Source of the DNA: an uncultured Acidobacteriota bacterium
Lineage (GTDB): Bacteria; Acidobacteriota; UBA6911
Length of the DNA: 64,000 bases
Assembly (NCBI GenBank): GCA_963809485.1
Contig: CAWEJX010000007.1
Location: forward strand, 576,001-640,000
Reading direction: 5' to 3'
In this document: positions 56,262 to 64,000 of the stretch, piece after piece
Layout of the letters: every line of letters begins with the position of its first letter
How positions within the stretch are numbered: the first letter of the stretch is position 1
Notes under the pieces: generated by a model
Told to the model about the DNA's origin: nothing
Database searches by the model: none
The model's input: only the letters and a program-made list of their open reading frames with translations
Made by a program: the position numbers and the translations under genes

Positions 56262-56717
56262 ATGCAAACTCTTGAGCCTATTTTGGCACAACAGCCGTTT
56301 TTGCAGAACCTCGACTCGGAGCACTTGCAGCTCCTGGTCGGATGCGCTTCCAACGTTCGCTATGAAGCCGGGCAATTTCTGCTCCGCGAGGGGGAGGAGG
56401 CCAATGAGTTTTTCATCATCCGGAGCGGCAAAGTCGCTATTGAGATTTACTCTCCGGAACGCGGCCCGATCAACATCGAGACCCTTGGAGAGGGCGATGT
56501 GCTCGGCTGGTCCTGGCTGGTGTCTCCTTACCTGTGGCGTTTTGATGCGCGGGCGATAGAGCTGACCCGTGCCCTGGTTTTAGATGGCAAATGCTTGCGC
56601 GGTAAATGTGAAAGCGACCACCATCTGGGATACGCACTGCTGAACCGATTCGCGCATATTATCGATCGCAGGTTGCAGGCAACCCGAATCCAACTACTCG
56701 ATATCTACCGTGCATGA
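56262..56717 (+). CDS. Stand-alone cyclic-nucleotide-binding domain protein
   Basis: [28 protein letters not shown]; no HTH. Confidence 0.9.
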
Positions 56718-57570
56718 GGAAAAGCTTAGGATGAAAGACCGGGCGCCGGAGCCGATGCTACCCGAACCTTTTCGCATCGAGCGAATACTGAAAGAAACCG
56801 GAGACACTTTTACCTTTGAACTGGAACCCGCAAACGGTGCCGCGGGCGCTGCTTTTTCCGCCGGGCAATTCAATATGCTCTATATATTCGGGATTGGGGA
56901 GGTCCCTATCTCGATAAGCGGGGATCCGGGCAAATCCGGCCGTATGGTTCACACCATAAGAGCCGTCGGCGCCGTAACCAAAGTAATGCGGGCATTGAAA
57001 CGCGGCAGCGTGATTGGCCTGCGCGGGCCTTACGGTAAAGGATGGCCAATTGAAGAGTCACGCGGCAACGACATCATAATCATTGGAGGCGGCATTGGGC
57101 TTGCCCCGCTGAGGCCGGCTTTGTACCGACTGATTTCCGAAAGGGAAAAGTACGGCCGCGTCATCCTGCTTTATGGCACGCGCACGCCCGCGGACATACT
57201 TTTTCACAACGAGTTGGAGCGCTGGCGCGGGCGTCTCGATCTTGATGTTGAGGTAACCGTTGACCGGGCAAACATATCCTGGCGCGGACACGTGGGAGTC
57301 GTCACGACTCTTATTCCCAAAGCTTCCTTTGATCCTCTGCAAACGACCGCTTTTATCTGCGGCCCCGAGATAATGATGCGCTTTACCGTGTTGGAACTCG
57401 AAAGGAGAGGAATCCCTTCGGAGAATATCTATTTATCGCTGGAGCGCAGTATGAAGTGCGGCATTGGACTCTGCGGGCACTGCCAGTTGGGACCCTACTT
57501 CATCTGCAAGGATGGCCCGGTGTTCTGTTATAACAAGGTCAAGAGCTTAATCGCATTGCGGGAAATCTAG
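56710..57570 (+). CDS. Group 3b hydrogenase gamma subunit (FAD/NAD-binding, 2Fe-2S)
   Basis: [37 protein letters not shown]. Confidence 0.92.
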
Positions 57571-57571
57571 C

Positions 57572-58351
57572 ATGCCTCGAGCAAAAAAACCCAAGCTGGC
57601 CTTCTGGAAATTTGCATCCTGTGACGGCTGCCAGATGACGCTTCTCGATTGTGAAGACGAGTTGCTTGCTGTTGCGAGTGAAATTGAAATCGCTAATTTT
57701 GCCGAAGCCACGAGCACCTTTATAAAGGGGCCCTACGACATTTCAATTGTCGAGGGATCCATTACCACACCCCAAGAGGAGGAGCGTATACACCGCATTC
57801 GCCGCTCATCCAAGTTCCTGGTGACCATTGGGGCATGCGCCTCCAGCGGAGGGATACAGTCTCTGCGCAATTTTAAAAACGTCCAGGAGTTTGTTTCTAT
57901 AGTCTATGCGACCCCGGCATACATTGAGACGCTCAACAAATCCACGCCGATGAAAGATCATATTCCTGTGGATTTCGAGCTACAGGGGTGTCCTCCGAAC
58001 AAATATCAGCTTCTGGAAGTGCTATCGGCATACCTGCATGGGCGGAAGCCGATCACTCCTCCCTATAGCCTGTGTCTCGATTGCAAGAGCCAAGGTATTG
58101 TCTGCGTCATGGTTGCCAACGGTATTCCTTGTATGGGCCCGGTAACCCATGCGGGCTGCGGCGCCCTATGCCCCTCGTATCGCCGCGGATGCTATAGTTG
58201 TTTCGGACCTAAGGAAACACCCAACACGGGCTCGCTGAGCGCATGGTTCAGCTCGCTGGGAAGGTCGAACCAGGATATTATCCGGTCTTTCCGCAGCTAC
58301 TATGGGTGGACTGAACCTTTTAGAAAAGAGAGTGAAGCGCTTGAGAAATAG
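57572..58351 (+). CDS. Group 3b hydrogenase small (delta) subunit
   Basis: SCDGCQ, VEGS, GACA, GCPP, C-terminal Cys cluster. Confidence 0.92.
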
Positions 58352-58465
58352 GCAGACGGGCGTGAATATGAGGCGCGCGACAAAGTGCAACACTGCACGG
58401 GCGACCGGCCGCTCGCCCGTCGCAGTAGAAGGCTTGTGAGCAGTGCGCTTTTAAAGGCAAATTGC

Positions 58466-59752
58466 ATGAAAACCGTTAGCATCAAGATAGATTACCTTAC
58501 GCGGGTGGAAGGTGAAGGCGCACTGCGCGTCAAGATAAAGGAAGGCGCAGTGGAGGATGTGCAGTTACGGATCTTCGAGCCGCCGCGCATGTTCGAAGCA
58601 TTTATGCGCGGCCGCCACGCCTTTGAAGCTCCCGACCTTGCAGCGCGGATCTGCGGCATCTGCCCGATCGCCTATCAAATGAGCGCAGTCCATGCCGTGG
58701 AAGACGCTTTTGGACTGAAGATCGACGGCCCAATCCGCAATTTGCGCCGGCTGATTTACTGCGGGGAGTGGATTGAAAGCCATGCGCTGAGTATTTATAT
58801 GCTACACGCGCCCGACTTTCTGGGTTATCCCGGCGCTTTGGAAATGGCTGGGAAATATCCCGAGGCTCTGAATCGCGGCTTGCAGCTGAAAAAAACAGGA
58901 AACGAAATCGTCGCGCTCCTGGGCGGACGCGAAATCCACCCCATTAATGTCCGCGTTGGAGGTTTTTATCGGTCACCGGCCAAGCGCGATCTAGCAAAGC
59001 TCGCCGAACGCCTTAAATGGGCTCGAGAAGCAGCGCTTGAAACCAGCCGCTGGGTTTCAGCCTTTGAGTTTCCGGATTGCGAGCGAGATTACGAGTTCGT
59101 TGCGCTCTCACATCCGAGCGAATACCCGCTGAATGAGGGGCGCATGGTCTCTAATAAAGGTCTGGATATTGAGGCGTCCCGATTCGACGACTACTTTGCA
59201 GAGGAGCACGTAAAACACTCTACGGCACTTCACTCGGCGATTATCCAGCGAGGGTCCTATTTCGTAGGTCCGCTGGCCCGTTTCAATCTCAATTTTGACA
59301 AGCTGTCCCCTCTTGCGCGCGAGGCCGCCGAGGCTGCCGGAATGAAGCCTCCCTGCCACAATCCTTTCCGCAGCATTATCGCGCGCGCTGTTGAAATTCT
59401 ACACAGCTGCGATGAAGCGCTGCGCTTGATCGAAAACTTTGAAATGCCGGAAAAGCCCGCGGCGGAAGTTCAGATTCGAGAAGGCATAGGATACGCCTGC
59501 ACCGAAGCCCCCCGCGGCGTTTTGTATCACCGCTACCGCATCGACAACGAGGGCAACCTTCTCGACGCCAGGATAGTGCCGCCAACCTCGCAAAATCAGA
59601 AGTCCATCGAAGAAGATCTGCGGCAGTTCATCCCCAGGTATTCGAATCTGCCAAAAGAGAAGATCACGGCATTTTGCGAGCATGCAATACGTAACTATGA
59701 TCCGTGCATCTCCTGCTCCACGCACGTGATCAAAATCTGGAATTCCATATGA
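58466..59752 (+). CDS. Group 3b NiFe hydrogenase large (alpha) subunit
   Basis: TRVEG, L1 RICGIC, EAPRG, L2 DPCISCSTH. Confidence 0.95.
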
Positions 59753-60044
59753 TTCGAGATCGAGAATTTTCAGCTTGAGCCGCAGAAACTATCTGCTTTC
59801 AGCAGAAGTGTGGGGAAATTCCCGTATGGTGAATATTCTTCGCCGTGGATCAAATGCGCTATTTCCGCAGGTTGTCATCAGAATGGCGGGACCTGTTCGG
59901 CCGATCTCAATAGACTGACGGACGAATTCTGGATACTGGGGAGGAAAAGGACCGGATTAACCATTTGGTTCCTCGGCCATGCATGGACGGCTGTGCACAC
60001 GATCAGGCTGCTCCCGAACGGCTTCCGTGATGAATCGACCGAGG

Positions 60045-60296
60045 TCATGCAGCTTCGCGGAAATAGTAACGCTGCAGTCCACCGAGCCGTTGCCGGCACA
60101 CGACCTCACCGGCCCTCTCGCCGACTTCCCTCCCAGGAATCAGCAGCCGGTTGCCCACCCCCTGATGGTTGCGCTCCGTAAGAAAATGATCCACATAGCT
60201 TACTGTGGCGGCATGGAGCGATTTCTCTCCGAAGAAGATCATGCGCTCCAGGCACTCCTCCTTCAGGCTTCGCATGAACCGCTCAATGTGCGCACT
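60045..60296 (-). pseudogene. rve/DDE transposase, 3' part (interrupted)
   Basis: AHIERFMRSLKEECL...ERNHQG...RLGGLQRYY. Confidence 0.88.
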
Positions 60297-60646
60297 GGAA
60301 AAAGCCATCAACTGCGAAGTATTCGACAGAACCGCAACGATTTTTCACAGTAACGCATCCCTTCCATCCTCTTCATAACCGCCGGTTCGAGCTGGTTGCT
60401 TGTAGGCCAGCCTGGGGTGAGTCCAGAGTGTACTTCTACAACGAAGAGAATTGCCTTATAGCGATACCAACTGCATGGACCGATGCGGCAGCGCCGGATC
60501 CGTTCGTAGCCATTGCAGCGGGCAGGGCCTGCTTCCGCACGGAAGATCTCATTCAGCTCGCAGAGCTGGTGACGTTCTGTAAAAGCAAAATGCCCAAGAA
60601 AAGAGTCCGCGCAACATCTGTAAAGGAAAAGACGCCGCATGTGTAA
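60293..60646 (+). CDS. DUF5372/Y4bD-like protein, lacking its start in the integrated state
   Basis: Frame open from the junction: HWKKPST...VTHPFHPL...WGESRVYF...IPTAWTD...DPFV..AAGRACFR..DL. Confidence 0.75.
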   Translation, partial: HWKKPSTAKYSTEPQRFFTVTHPFHPLHNRRFELVACRPAWGESRVYFYNEENCLIAIPTAWTDAAAPDPFVAIAAGRACFRTEDLIQLAELVTFCKSKMPKKRVRATSVKEKTPHV

Positions 60647-60794
60647 GAGTAATATCGCCGCATATCCGTTGTGCGCATCTGCAAACATTATTGATGGTAT
60701 GCGCATGATATGCTTGATAACGGCTAGCGTACGGTTGATGTCAACACGATTATCCTTGACATGCGGAGAGGAATAAGGCGTATATATTATTACA

Positions 60795-61265
60795 ATGAAA
60801 AAACAATTGCGCACAGCCGACCCAAAGATAAAAGCACTGAAACAGCAAGGAACCCTGAATCCTCATCCCGAACGGGTAACCGATTCACTCTTCCTCGAAA
60901 GCGAATTCTTCAATGCACGTGACGTAGTTCAGGTCAAGTACGAGATGCTGCGGCGGGTCGAAGCCGAGGGGAAGTCGGTGACTGCCGCTGCTGCCGCCTT
61001 CGGCCTCTCACGGCCAGCATTTTACCAAGCTCAGTCAATCCTGCGGCAAGATGGCCTTCCCGGGCTCATCCCCAAAAAACGGGGTCCCCGAAGTGGTCAT
61101 AAGCTTAGCGAAGAAGTCGTCGATTACATTGAGGCGGCCCGGGCTGCAAGCCAATCACCAACTGTTTCGGAGTTGATTTCCCTGGTCACCGAGCGCTTTG
61201 GCATTAAAGTTCACCGTCGCACCGTTGAGCGCGCCCTGCGCCGGCGGGAAAAAAAACAGCTATGA
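60795..61265 (+). CDS. Helix-turn-helix domain protein
   Basis: GTLNPHPERV...QVKYEMLR...FGLSRPAFYQ...GLPGLIPKKRGP...HRRTVERAL. Confidence 0.85.
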   Translation: MKKQLRTADPKIKALKQQGTLNPHPERVTDSLFLESEFFNARDVVQVKYEMLRRVEAEGKSVTAAAAAFGLSRPAFYQAQSILRQDGLPGLIPKKRGPRSGHKLSEEVVDYIEAARAASQSPTVSELISLVTERFGIKVHRRTVERALRRREKKQL

Positions 61266-61579
61266 AAGCCAGAAGGCAAGTTGATCAGGGACCTGATGCA
61301 CTGATGCGGATCAAAACGGCATACGAAAAACTGCGCAAACAGGCAATCGATCAAAGTTGTTGCACTCAAGGAGAACTTGGACTTGCCGTCTTGAAGTATC
61401 AAGGATTGGCGGCATGGATCGATGCGTGGTGGACCTATGCGAGCCCGGTTGTCCCTGAAGGCGCCGACAGCAAAATGGCTGACGACTTCCTTCCTGCGGG
61501 ATTACAGGGCGACATCGTAATGGTACTGTCGAGTATGGTTTTCCATGCGGCATCCACAGAGGTGAGCTATGGCGAGTGA
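61262..61579 (+). CDS. Hypothetical protein of the recombinase element
   Basis: Overlaps both neighbouring genes; YEKLR...GLAAW. Confidence 0.7.
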   Translation: MKARRQVDQGPDALMRIKTAYEKLRKQAIDQSCCTQGELGLAVLKYQGLAAWIDAWWTYASPVVPEGADSKMADDFLPAGLQGDIVMVLSSMVFHAASTEVSYGE

Positions 61580-63650
61580 GGGGAATCAGAAGATCCGGCC
61601 GATCCACGTTCAACGGAATGCCTATTTGTACATACGGCAATCGACGCTCCGACAGGTTTTGGAAAATACTGAAAGTACAAAACGCCAGTATGCCTTGAAG
61701 CAGCGCGCAGTTGCGTTGGGATGGCCCCAGGAGCGTATCATTGTGCTGGATACGGATCTGGGCCAATCAGGCGCAGCCGCTGCAGACCGCGAGGGTTTCC
61801 AAAAATTGGTGACCGAAGTTGGGTTAGGGCATGCAGGCTTGGTGATGGGTTTAGAGGTTTCTCGCCTTGCACGAAATTCGGCCGACTGGCATCGGCTGCT
61901 CGAAATGTGTGCACTGAGCGATACACTCATACTGGACGAGGATGGTATTTACGATCCGGCGCACTTTAATGACCGCCTGCTGCTCGGTCTCAAAGGTACG
62001 ATGAGTGAAGCCGAACTGCACATGCTTCGGGCTCGGCTTTTGGGCGGTATCGTGAATAAGGCACGGCGAGGTGAACTAGAGTGCCCACTTCCCATTGGTT
62101 TCATCTACGATGCAACAGGCAAAGTCGTGATTGATCCCGACCGGCAGGTTCAGGAGAGCATCCGCATGTTCTTCCGGACTTTTCGTCGTACGGGGTCTGC
62201 AACAGCAACAGTGAAAGCGTTTCGAAACAAGGGCCTGCTCTTTCCACGACGAGCCGATAATCATCAGAAGGGAGACTTGGCGTGGGGCCCCCTTTTACTC
62301 CATCGCGCCTTATGGCTGCTGCACAATCCACGCTTTGCGGGAGCATTTTTCTTTGGGCGTACTCGACAGCGCAAGTATGGCTCTAATGTTAGCAGTAGGA
62401 AATTACCGCGGGAGGAATGGATTGCGTTTATTCCCAATGCGCATCCGGGCTACATTTCTTGGGACGAATTCGAACAGAACCAGAAATGCCTGACCGAAAA
62501 CTCGGCGGCCCACGGCACCGACCGCCGCAAGAGCCCGCCAAGAGAAGGTCCTGCTTTGTTACAGGGGTTGGTGATCTGTGGAGTATGCGGCCGGCGTATG
62601 ACGGTTCGTTATCATGGTAGGAGACAAGGACTTCAGCCTGACTATGTGTGCCAGCGCGAAGGGATAGAACGCGGAGAGAGGATTTGCCAGCATATCCCGG
62701 GAGCGAATATCGACGAGGCTGTAGGAGCTCTTCTGGTTGAGGCTGTGAGTCCCATGGCTCTAGAAGTGACGCTGGCAGTGCAGCAGGAATTGCAGACACG
62801 TCTGAGTGAAGCAGACGCACTGCGAAAAAAACACGTCGAGCGAGCTCAGTATGAGGCGGATCTTGCCCGGCGGCGTTTTCTCCGTGTAGATCCAGAGAAC
62901 CGGCTTGTAGCTGCCTCACTTGAGGCTGAGTGGAACGAGAAACTCCGAGTGCTCGATGAGCGACAGCAAGAGTATCAGCGGGAATGCGAAAGGGATCGGA
63001 AGCTCCTTGATGAAAAGACAAGCACGCAGGTTCTTACTCTTGCAAGTGATTTTCCCAAACTCTGGCAAGATCAGCGGACAGAGGACCGCGATCGAAAGCG
63101 AATGTTGCGGCTCTTGATCGAAGATGTGACTCTTATTAGGAACAAAGAAATCAGCGCCAGTGTCCGCTTCCGAGGGGGAGCCACCAGGATACTGACACTG
63201 CCTCTTCCGCCTCCGGCATGGAAGATCCGGCAGACCAGTCCTGAAGTGCTCGCCGAGATCGACCGGCTGCTCGACAACCATACGGACTCGGAGATTTCCG
63301 TGATTCTCACCGAACGCGGATATCGCTCAGGCGAGGGAAAGTCCATTAATCACGCAATGGTCTACCGTCTTTGCCGCGAGTATGCAATGAAAACACGATA
63401 TCAACGACTCCGCGATCTTGGGATGATGACAGTTAATGAGACAGCAGCCAGACTCGATATCAATCCCGGAACGGTCAAGAAGTGGAAACGTGGAGGTTAT
63501 CTACACGCCCACTGGTACAATGACCATTCTTATCTCATCGAACGTCCTGGAAACAATAGGCCGCTTAAGCACAAGAGAAAACCGGGATGCTATCGATCAA
63601 AGGCAGAAAGAGCGACCCAAATTACGCATGAGGTGCAGTATGAAGCATAA
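61569..63650 (+). CDS. Large serine recombinase (resolvase, recombinase, Zn-ribbon, C-terminal HTH)
   Basis: YIRQST catalytic Ser, D.G.SG, EVSRLARN, CGVCG, DPENRLVA..LE..WN, C-terminal EVQYEA; 693 aa. Confidence 0.95.
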   Translation: MASEGNQKIRPIHVQRNAYLYIRQSTLRQVLENTESTKRQYALKQRAVALGWPQERIIVLDTDLGQSGAAAADREGFQKLVTEVGLGHAGLVMGLEVSRLARNSADWHRLLEMCALSDTLILDEDGIYDPAHFNDRLLLGLKGTMSEAELHMLRARLLGGIVNKARRGELECPLPIGFIYDATGKVVIDPDRQVQESIRMFFRTFRRTGSATATVKAFRNKGLLFPRRADNHQKGDLAWGPLLLHRALWLLHNPRFAGAFFFGRTRQRKYGSNVSSRKLPREEWIAFIPNAHPGYISWDEFEQNQKCLTENSAAHGTDRRKSPPREGPALLQGLVICGVCGRRMTVRYHGRRQGLQPDYVCQREGIERGERICQHIPGANIDEAVGALLVEAVSPMALEVTLAVQQELQTRLSEADALRKKHVERAQYEADLARRRFLRVDPENRLVAASLEAEWNEKLRVLDERQQEYQRECERDRKLLDEKTSTQVLTLASDFPKLWQDQRTEDRDRKRMLRLLIEDVTLIRNKEISASVRFRGGATRILTLPLPPPAWKIRQTSPEVLAEIDRLLDNHTDSEISVILTERGYRSGEGKSINHAMVYRLCREYAMKTRYQRLRDLGMMTVNETAARLDINPGTVKKWKRGGYLHAHWYNDHSYLIERPGNNRPLKHKRKPGCYRSKAERATQITHEVQYEA

Positions 63651-64000
63651 GCACTCAAATTCGGGGATCGTGCCGGCAGGCGGAGCGGCTTCACTCCGAC
63701 ATCCTCAAACGTGCCCCGGAACGCTTCCGAGAATTTCGTGTCTCGGTCCATCAGCAAGTATCGATTGCCACGAAGGAATCCGTCATCGGCGTCAGTCACA
63801 TTCCTGGCAACCTGAAGCAGCCAGGCTTCATCTGGATTGGTGGTGAGACCAGCAAAATGAATCCGTCGGGTTGCAATCTCCATGAAGAACAGCAGATAGT
63901 ATGTAACCAATCCCTTCTTCGTCCAAATCCCGATCGCTGTGAAATCAACCGAGGCAAGCATATCCCAGTGTGTGTTGAGGAATTCCTTCCAGCTGCCCTG
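63651..64000 (-). pseudogene. rve/DDE transposase, upstream part (runs off the window)
   Basis: LASVDFTAI...YYLLFFMEIATRRI...YLLMDRDTKF...LPARSPNLSA. Confidence 0.9.

Follow-up and report, generated by a model that had tools for sequence, protein, structure and literature searches.

A serine-recombinase element of insertion-sequence size whose attachment site divides its DUF5372 gene, a candidate state-reporting partner of the recombinase

The window analysed here is a stretch of 64,000 nt from the genome of an uncultured Acidobacteriota bacterium (contig CAWEJX010000007.1), to which all coordinates refer unless another record is named; close to its right end, between 60292 and 63655, a mobile element of exactly 3,359 bp, which encodes a large serine recombinase (LSR) and a protein of the family DUF5372, lies inside a minus-strand rve-type transposase gene of an insertion sequence (IS). 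The flanks of the element translate as the two halves of this transposase (open reading frames, ORFs, 60045–60311 and 63590–64000, minus strand): the left part of the host IS (59884–60291, minus strand) holds the C-terminal fragment (rve_3 match, E 7.8e-07), whose ORF runs a few codons into the element, and the right part (63656–64000, minus strand) holds the N-terminal and middle fragment (rve match, E 9.1e-05) and extends past the window to ~64632. The pentanucleotide GCACT is found at both junctions (60292–60296 and 63651–63655), and within it alignment with relatives places the crossover dinucleotide CT at 60295–60296, the corresponding CT on the right being at 63654–63655. The size of the element, which had been proposed in an earlier inspection of the same letters (hereafter the sequence-only reading), is confirmed by the empty site: contigs of two public metagenome runs, X1 (1,127 nt) and X3 (297 nt), pass directly from 60291 to 63651, five letters at the joint being ambiguous, so that 3,359 nt are absent and the unoccupied transposase gene is reproduced. 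Since contigs of X3 also carry pieces of the element (99–100% identity) beside the empty-site joint, both occupied and empty sites exist in public data. The insertion is precise, with a short shared core, and the attachment site of the joined element (attP) consists of imperfect inverted half-sites.

In the source genome the IS and the element it carries are present twice, as a repeat of 4,749 bp with one copy on contig C7 and one on C20 (L001 and L002), beginning at ~59884 of the window. Sequence divergence between the two copies amounts to 2 positions within the 3,359-nt element versus 32 within the 1,390 nt of the IS arms, a disparity that suggests separate recent insertions into two older, already diverged copies of the same IS target. 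Neither an empty or intact copy of the host IS nor a third copy of the element was found in the source genome assembly. A weak third DUF5372-like match (23.7 bits, the cut-off being 25) is located on contig C8 of the same genome (595978–596127; L005), inside an open frame of 155 amino acids (aa).

The element encodes, on the plus strand and from left to right, the body of the DUF5372 gene (60296–60646), a 156-aa helix-turn-helix (HTH) protein (60795–61265), a 105-aa protein (61262–61579) and the LSR of 693 aa (61569–63650). The LSR is recognized by the Pfam models PF00239 (Resolvase, E 2.1e-18), PF07508 (Recombinase, 1.5e-12) and PF13408 (Zn_ribbon_recom, 2.7e-09), is 51–63% identical to 21 relatives and has a catalytic region that is invariant across the 22 aligned relatives. 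The DUF5372 match (PF17342) reaches 90.9 bits against a gathering cut-off of 25 (E 5.4e-26) and covers model positions 1–74 of 78, corresponding to residues 20–93 of the 117 encoded inside the element. The HTH protein (HTH_28, E 1.1e-11; also HTH_23 and HTH_32), whose position is conserved in relatives, resembles the N-terminal DNA-binding part of IS481/IS630-type transposases, to which it has partial NCBIfam matches below cut-off (E 3.7e-12 and 2.2e-11). The 105-aa protein overlaps both adjoining genes and has no Pfam or NCBIfam family match, but a counterpart of 86–111 aa is found at the same place in many relatives; the NCBIfam search likewise returned nothing for the DUF5372 protein. The sole sizeable non-coding stretch of the element is the 148-nt region upstream of the HTH gene (60647–60794, plus strand), in which TTGACA and TATATA can be read 19 nt apart and which may hold a promoter; a strict promoter scan of the linear region 59800–64000 gave 0 promoter-like sites, and a promoter/terminator scan gave nothing above shuffles.

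The feature that sets this element apart is the organization of its DUF5372 gene. Within the element this gene consists of a Trp codon at the core, a leader of 19 codons containing no start, the motif THPFHP followed by the domain, and a stop at 60644–60646. As claimed by the sequence-only reading, the frame (60293–60646; HWKKPST...THPFHP...) is open as far as the left junction and has no ATG, GTG or TTG ahead of THPFHP; translation showed, in addition, that the nearest upstream in-frame stop is a TGA at 60275, in the flank, and that the first possible start is a GTG at 60428, 25 codons past the motif. At the opposite end of the element, the last seven codons of the LSR gene (GAG GTG CAG TAT GAA GCA TAA), specifying EVQYEA and the stop, contain in another frame a Shine-Dalgarno box, GAGGTG (63630–63635), and an ATG (63640–63642). 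When the two ends are joined by script through the shared GCACT, this ATG is in frame with DUF5372 and yields a protein of 4 + 117 = 121 aa, whereas, with the element integrated, the frame opened by this ATG continues into transposase sequence in antisense orientation (MKHKHSNSG..., within ORF 63436–63846), so that these elements of the sequence-only reading, too, could be reproduced. On integration the first five codons of the DUF5372 gene are separated from codon 6 onward, what stays in the integrated copy being a body without a start, and, since the crossover falls inside an ORF of the element, integrated and joined states encode different products. We infer that the gene is readable only from joined ends, that is from a circle or from a head-to-tail tandem copy, which is broader than the sequence-only reading, where expression from the circle alone had been envisaged. 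As regards the joined ends of the studied element itself, no back-joint over 60100–63850 was found in the Logan contigs of runs X1, X2, X3 and X5, each of which holds at most 0.21 of the sampled words, a result that is uninformative since contigs drop rare forms.

The conservation of this arrangement was assessed in relatives obtained by a pattern scan of one genome per species, which yielded 80 loci encoding a DUF5372 relative and, with the window, 81 sources. They belong to phyla that include Acidobacteriota, Actinomycetota (several Streptomyces), Chloroflexota, Gemmatimonadota, Planctomycetota, Verrucomicrobiota, Myxococcota and Pseudomonadota, and the order of the four genes as well as their sizes are conserved. 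No THPFHP-like motif was present in 4 sources, no left arm in 2 and no right end within the contig in 17, which left 58 with candidates for both ends; 48 of these passed the filters (an element length of 3,200–3,600 nt and identical dinucleotides at the two predicted cores) and, after removal of 11 exact arm duplicates, represent 37 distinct end sequences. False motif matches in copies that are degenerate or truncated make up most of the 10 failures, which include L037, whose right end, with 3 mismatches, is likewise in frame, and L024, a shortened element with a stop at the Trp codon.

In all 37 distinct relatives the start at the right end, when the ends are joined in silico over the 2-bp core, is in frame with THPFHP, no stop intervenes, and the core separates codon 5 from codon 6 of the joined ORF; frame continuity across the junction, on which the sequence-only reading had staked its case, is thus non-random, and the in-frame layout appears to be conserved beyond chance. 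Located 14 nt ahead of the core, the start codon is an ATG in 23 of the 37 and a GTG in the other 14, GAGG or GGAG precedes it in every one of them, and the leader between core and THPFHP counts 19 codons in 36 and 18 codons in the remaining one. Furthermore, the DUF5372 genes of this clade usually have no start of their own, as had been anticipated: ATG, GTG and TTG are all missing from the leader of 22/37, and the Val codon that precedes the motif is GTG in only 10/37. The core dinucleotide is CT in the studied element and TT in the other 36. Its position is fixed independently of the motif by the record OY969810, because among its seven loci the identity between copies begins and ends exactly at TT on both sides.

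The right-end motif, GAGGTGCAGT(A/G)TG, is kept in the 37 relatives while the stop of the LSR moves with respect to the start codon: the offset is +8 in 17 cases (tail EVQ[YC]EA and variants), +1 in 8, −4 in 1, −11 in 5 and between −19 and −54 in 6, altogether eleven different offsets in all three phases. Since the motif stays constant in spite of these shifts, the EVQYEA tail is a by-product of conservation at the DNA level, which is what the sequence-only reading had supposed. The same DNA is also a recombination site. Mirror half-sites around a core are the expected layout of the attP of an LSR, and both arms of these elements are indeed mirror half-sites with A..GG.GCAGT, in which GCAGT/ACTGC is located 15.5–19.5 nt from the centre of the TT/CT core; for the layout of such half-sites see also PMC12286644. 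According to the arm profiles of the relatives, in the studied element the left half-site (P′ arm, 60297–60330) falls within the leader codons and contains ACTGC, the mirror of the right-arm GCAGT, and the right half-site (P arm, 63620–63653) coincides in part with the final LSR codons as well as with the Shine-Dalgarno box and the ATG. The two arms are not identical, however: in the right arm only, G and A at −24/−23 and T at −20 turn GG.G into GAGGTG, the information scores at these three positions being 9, 7 and 9 versus 2, 2 and 1 in the left arm, and an extra A/G makes A/G-T-G where the left arm has T-T-G-A. GGAGGTG is complementary to the 3′ end of 16S rRNA. In our reading, a Shine-Dalgarno box and a start codon are probably superimposed on the right half-site.

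A coding signature is recognizable in codons 15–19 of the leader and in the domain, codons 17 and 19 being invariant at position 2 and free at position 3; leader codons 5–8 (S-T/N-A/T-P) are also conserved, but they coincide with the half-site. In the first 20 codons of the domain the differences at codon positions 1, 2 and 3 amount to 0.30, 0.30 and 0.57, and because of this distribution the domain can be said to be under clear constraint at the protein level. An open leader of constant length, on the other hand, would by itself lend modest support to its being translated.

The division of the gene would explain why the DUF5372 family is misannotated by gene callers. Among 90 database homologues of the product of a joined gene (that of contig L093, described below), 57 are called from a start located after THPFHP (three of them misfiled, since P0065 begins in the leader and P0129 and P0131 have unrelated N-termini), 19 run into the flank, 13 start at or near the Val codon or inside the leader, and a single one, the query itself, has the joined N-terminus. 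A homologue search with the protein of the studied element gave the same picture on a smaller scale, and a search of a protein atlas returned DUF5372 clusters only. The 19 proteins that extend into the flank could be taken to mean that the DUF5372 frames of integrated copies are either degenerating relics or expressed as fusions from starts in the surrounding target DNA, and that the split is without regulatory significance; broken copies such as L024 and the pair L090/L091, in which the gene is truncated after THP, would fit this explanation as well. Yet the flank-derived N-termini are unrelated to each other, the flank of the studied locus provides a stop and no start, and the protein-level constraint on the domain is hardly that of a decaying frame, so that we regard this explanation as most improbable.

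Joined ends, the absence of which would have told against the sequence-only reading, are present for relatives in public assemblies. A scan of metagenome contigs for the right-end consensus followed by the left-arm consensus at the predicted distance returned four contigs, two of which carry an intact joined gene. The first of these (L092, 1,068 nt) contains the 3′ end of an LSR gene, the ATG and an uninterrupted DUF5372 gene of 102 aa; the second (L093, 2,689 nt) contains a complete LSR gene of 701 aa, the ATG, a DUF5372 gene of 103 aa, a spacer and the apparent start of the HTH gene (MKQAKAK...), and because of this cyclic gene order it fits a circle or a tandem copy. The other two (L090, 1301–1345, and L091, 437–481) share an identical stretch that runs from an LSR 3′ end through the junction into ~75 nt of the left end, after which DUF5372 breaks off behind THP and is followed by host-like genes (by eye STAS-like and response-regulator-like); this stretch looks like the fossil of a joined or tandem form. 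Since the shared core is just 2–5 nt long, overlap of assembler k-mers would not account for the joined contigs. The joined-form pattern was found in 0 of 101 other loci, all of them integrated forms or unrelated, and gave 0 matches in the viral_contigs scan.

The DUF5372 protein, which we take, as did the sequence-only reading, to be linked to y4bD of plasmid pNGR234a, is modelled by AlphaFold (pLDDT 77.5) as a small β-barrel with two helices and a disordered leader (residues 1–12 below 50). A fold search of the PDB with this model gave as best hits weak SH3-like/KOW barrels (NdhS, ribosomal eS4), all with E >0.01, and no functional lead; the literature searches found no paper naming DUF5372 or y4bD and nothing relevant on y4bA, y4pH, y4pK or y4bB. 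The predicted complex between LSR and DUF5372 protein (input alignments of 22 and 43 rows, respectively) is more informative: its score is 0.72 versus 0.01 for the best of 3 controls, three runs agree in at least 70% of the contacts and the pLDDT of the partner is 69, the score mark having been reached in a benchmark by 58 of 80 solved complexes and by 2 of 110 mismatched pairs. The predicted interface comprises, on the LSR side, residues 336–341, inside the zinc ribbon (Pfam 330–386), as well as 392–412 and 478–539, taken, from the analogy to other LSRs, to be the two legs and the base of the coiled coil, and on the DUF5372 side residues 22–27 (the HPFHPL motif), 58 and 69–101. DUF5372 is thereby predicted to bind the LSR at the junction between the zinc ribbon (DBD2) and the coiled coil. 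According to PMC12286644, all verified directionality factors are predicted to bind the DBD2/coiled-coil junction. Like the directionality factors of serine integrases (phiC31 gp3, SPbeta SprB), DUF5372 is thus a small element-encoded protein predicted at this junction; unlike them, it has no sequence likeness or strong fold likeness to known factors and its expression would depend on attP instead of a lytic programme.

The reading that we favour, with a probability of roughly 0.6, is that DUF5372 is a state-reporting cofactor of the LSR that is produced solely in the presence of attP and turned off by integration, and that it most likely favours the integration of the circle or opposes its immediate re-excision. 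The sequence of events would be the following. The element would insert by exchange at the 2-bp core into DNA for the conserved end of the catalytic core of an rve transposase. On the right, the half-site of its attP is written over the final LSR codons as well as the Shine-Dalgarno box and start of DUF5372; on the left, over codons 6 onward of the same gene. In the joined state the region 60647–60794 would drive the HTH, 105-aa and LSR genes, and the message would then cross attP into DUF5372; as the DUF5372 start overlaps or abuts the LSR stop, translational coupling would cause the partner to be made together with the enzyme. Upon integration the gene would be cut after codon 5, leaving at the left end a promoterless body that faces in from the antisense strand of the target. 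A factor made only while attP exists could help the circle to integrate, or restrain re-excision, and would then be shut off. Since an excision-promoting factor made only after excision would make little sense, the direction of the effect is a guess, which weighs against the last step; a circle-only layout argues, if anything, for a bias opposite to that of a classical directionality factor.

Several other observations weigh against the favoured reading. Some ATG, GTG or TTG is present in the leader of the remaining 15/37 relatives, including the GTG at the pre-motif Val in 10, and among the database proteins 8/90 are called at or near this Val and 5/90 inside the leader, so that some lineages could start internally. 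A sister DUF5372 clade with a different leader (..APFV.QLPQKVRI; nine proteins in our set) often has a semi-conserved, Met-started N-terminus of ~29 residues (seven proteins) and may carry its own start; from 401 genomes of the phylum one relative, belonging to the same genus as the window, was obtained (L094), which has an in-frame stop 18 codons before the motif on a contig that ends 80 nt upstream of the motif. Leader codons 9–14 are saturated, with flat differences of 0.51, 0.50 and 0.56 at the three codon positions that speak neither for nor against coding, and the +1 frame of the leader is also free of stops in 30/37. Because the arms are mirror half-sites, the in-frame status is largely inherited and does not amount to 37 independent events, and part of the conservation of GGTGCAGT and of its fixed 14-nt spacing to the core is due to binding of the recombinase. 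Finally, the joined contigs of the relatives may be tandem copies rather than circles.

Taken to its end, this line of thought leads to an account in which the right-end motif is nothing but half-site and LSR tail codons, DUF5372 is translated from the integrated element through an internal or non-canonical start such as the Val codon before THPFHP, and the match of the frames is a by-product of attP geometry. The occurrence of A..GG.GCAGT in both arms at equal distance from the core and the start codons just mentioned are what would be expected in this case. The Val codon is, however, a non-start (GTA, GTC, ATC, ATA or ATT) in 27/37 relatives, being GTA in the studied element; the bases that complete GAGGTG and the A/G of the start position are conserved in the right arm only; the leader keeps its length and stays open in spite of its saturated middle; and the start to which 57/90 gene calls fall back deletes the most conserved motif of the protein, which lies in the predicted interface. 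An account of this kind is therefore rather unlikely.

The predicted binding site, which is that of known directionality factors, raises a different question, namely whether DUF5372 could be a classical excision-promoting factor that is made from a first circle or tandem copy and acts in trans on other integrated copies, setting off a burst of excision. Many genomes contain several copies, e.g., seven loci in OY969810 and four in one Acidobacteriota contig, and would offer substrates for such an activity. Blocking attP × attB recombination in a circle that does not replicate would nevertheless favour loss of the element, and the first excision would be left unexplained; for these reasons a trans-acting excision factor appears unlikely, and the state-reporting cofactor outlined above is retained as the preferred interpretation.

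As to the DNA invaded by these elements, empty sites rebuilt by script restore in many loci a minus-strand frame of the type ...P..P..(N/K)-G..E(R/S)..., with the junction between (N/K) and G; motifs like those of IS3, IS21 and IS481 are recognizable in the restored frames, and AA of the Asn/Lys codon reads as the TT core on the opposite strand. A scan of 20 right-flank frames (loci among L013–L083) gave an rve match (E up to 0.001) in 11, above the Pfam cut-off in 7 of the 11, and in 9/11 the match ends at model position 100–102 of 102, right at the junction; the remaining flanks contain only transposase-type HTH domains (4/20), no match (4/20) or a citrate synthase (1/20, L040). The profile of the left flanks conserves GCGTTC, the antisense of Glu-Arg codons. 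Because the rve matches stop at the junction and GCGTTC is conserved on the other side, the family mostly homes into DNA for the end of the DDE catalytic core, several IS families being hit and the invaded insertion sequences being inactivated. The usual targets have an Asn or Lys codon (AAY/AAR) at the core; that of the studied element, whose core is CT, has a Ser codon (AGT) instead, and the change of the core would thus seem to track a variant target. The HTH protein of the element has its likeness in IS481/IS630/IS3-type transposases, the same kinds of elements that the family invades. One of the loci of OY969810 (L085) combines the left flank of L082 with the right one of L079, and no transposase frame is obtained when its empty site is rebuilt; this locus suggests an inversion or exchange between two element copies or, alternatively, an assembly chimera. 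Directly upstream of the IS invaded at the studied locus, at 56710–59752, three plus-strand ORFs of 286, 259 and 455 aa resemble, by eye, an oxidoreductase subunit and the small and large subunits of an NiFe-type hydrogenase.

There are precedents both for elements in which attP divides a gene of their own and for expression signals that exist only in a circle. The circular intermediate of Tn4451/Tn4453, which are mobilized by the LSR TnpX, reportedly forms a promoter for tnpX, as Lyras and Rood are said to have found in 2000; there, as here, the joining of the ends of an LSR-driven element creates an expression signal present only in the circle, but what is assembled in Tn4451/Tn4453 is the promoter of the recombinase, whereas here the body of a distinct accessory gene acquires its ribosome-binding site, its start and five codons. 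The circles of IS911, IS30 and IS21 likewise have a junction promoter assembled from the two ends; in these cases the enzymes are DDE transposases and the signal is transcriptional, in contrast to the LSR and the translation signal of the present element. In mycobacteriophage BPs attP lies within the repressor gene, whose 3′ end is altered by a tyrosine integrase. Both systems have attP in a regulatory gene or putative regulatory gene, so that integrated and free genome make different products, but BPs changes the 3′ end of its repressor, while here a small LSR-associated gene loses its start and 5′ end, in an element the size of an IS. Integration-dependent immunity of BPs and its relatives is the subject of PMC4557955. 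Another comparison is offered by the SSV-type “suicidal” integrases of archaeal viruses, in which, as described in PMC8371274, attP is inside int, integration partitions the gene and excision restores it. Here, too, the attachment site is inside one of the element's own genes; the SSV-type enzyme is, however, a tyrosine recombinase whose own gene is split, whereas in the present case the LSR remains intact and a predicted partner loses only its translation start. Nothing on this element family turned up when the literature was searched more broadly for serine recombinases, junctions and transposase targets. What would be new, to judge from these searches, is the superposition, within the same 30 nt, of an LSR stop and an attP half-site on the Shine-Dalgarno box and start codon of a partner resembling directionality factors, together with the family itself and its target.

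LSRs are major tools of genome engineering, and the control of their direction is a central question; the directionality factors known to us are phage proteins under transcriptional control. If the interpretation favoured here is true, the supply of an LSR partner would be hard-wired to the recombination state of the DNA, constituting a minimal, self-resetting directionality circuit, DUF5372 would acquire a function, and new triplets of LSR, cofactor and att site would become available from several phyla. With less than even confidence we would go further and tentatively regard these elements as a widespread, hitherto undescribed group of IS-sized LSR elements that parasitize transposons and sense their own topology, the partner being translated only when the element is a circle, so that a single gene would act as a directionality switch encoded in the state of the DNA. 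The preference for the catalytic core of rve transposases makes the members of this family inactivators of insertion sequences, which bears on the ecology of transposons.

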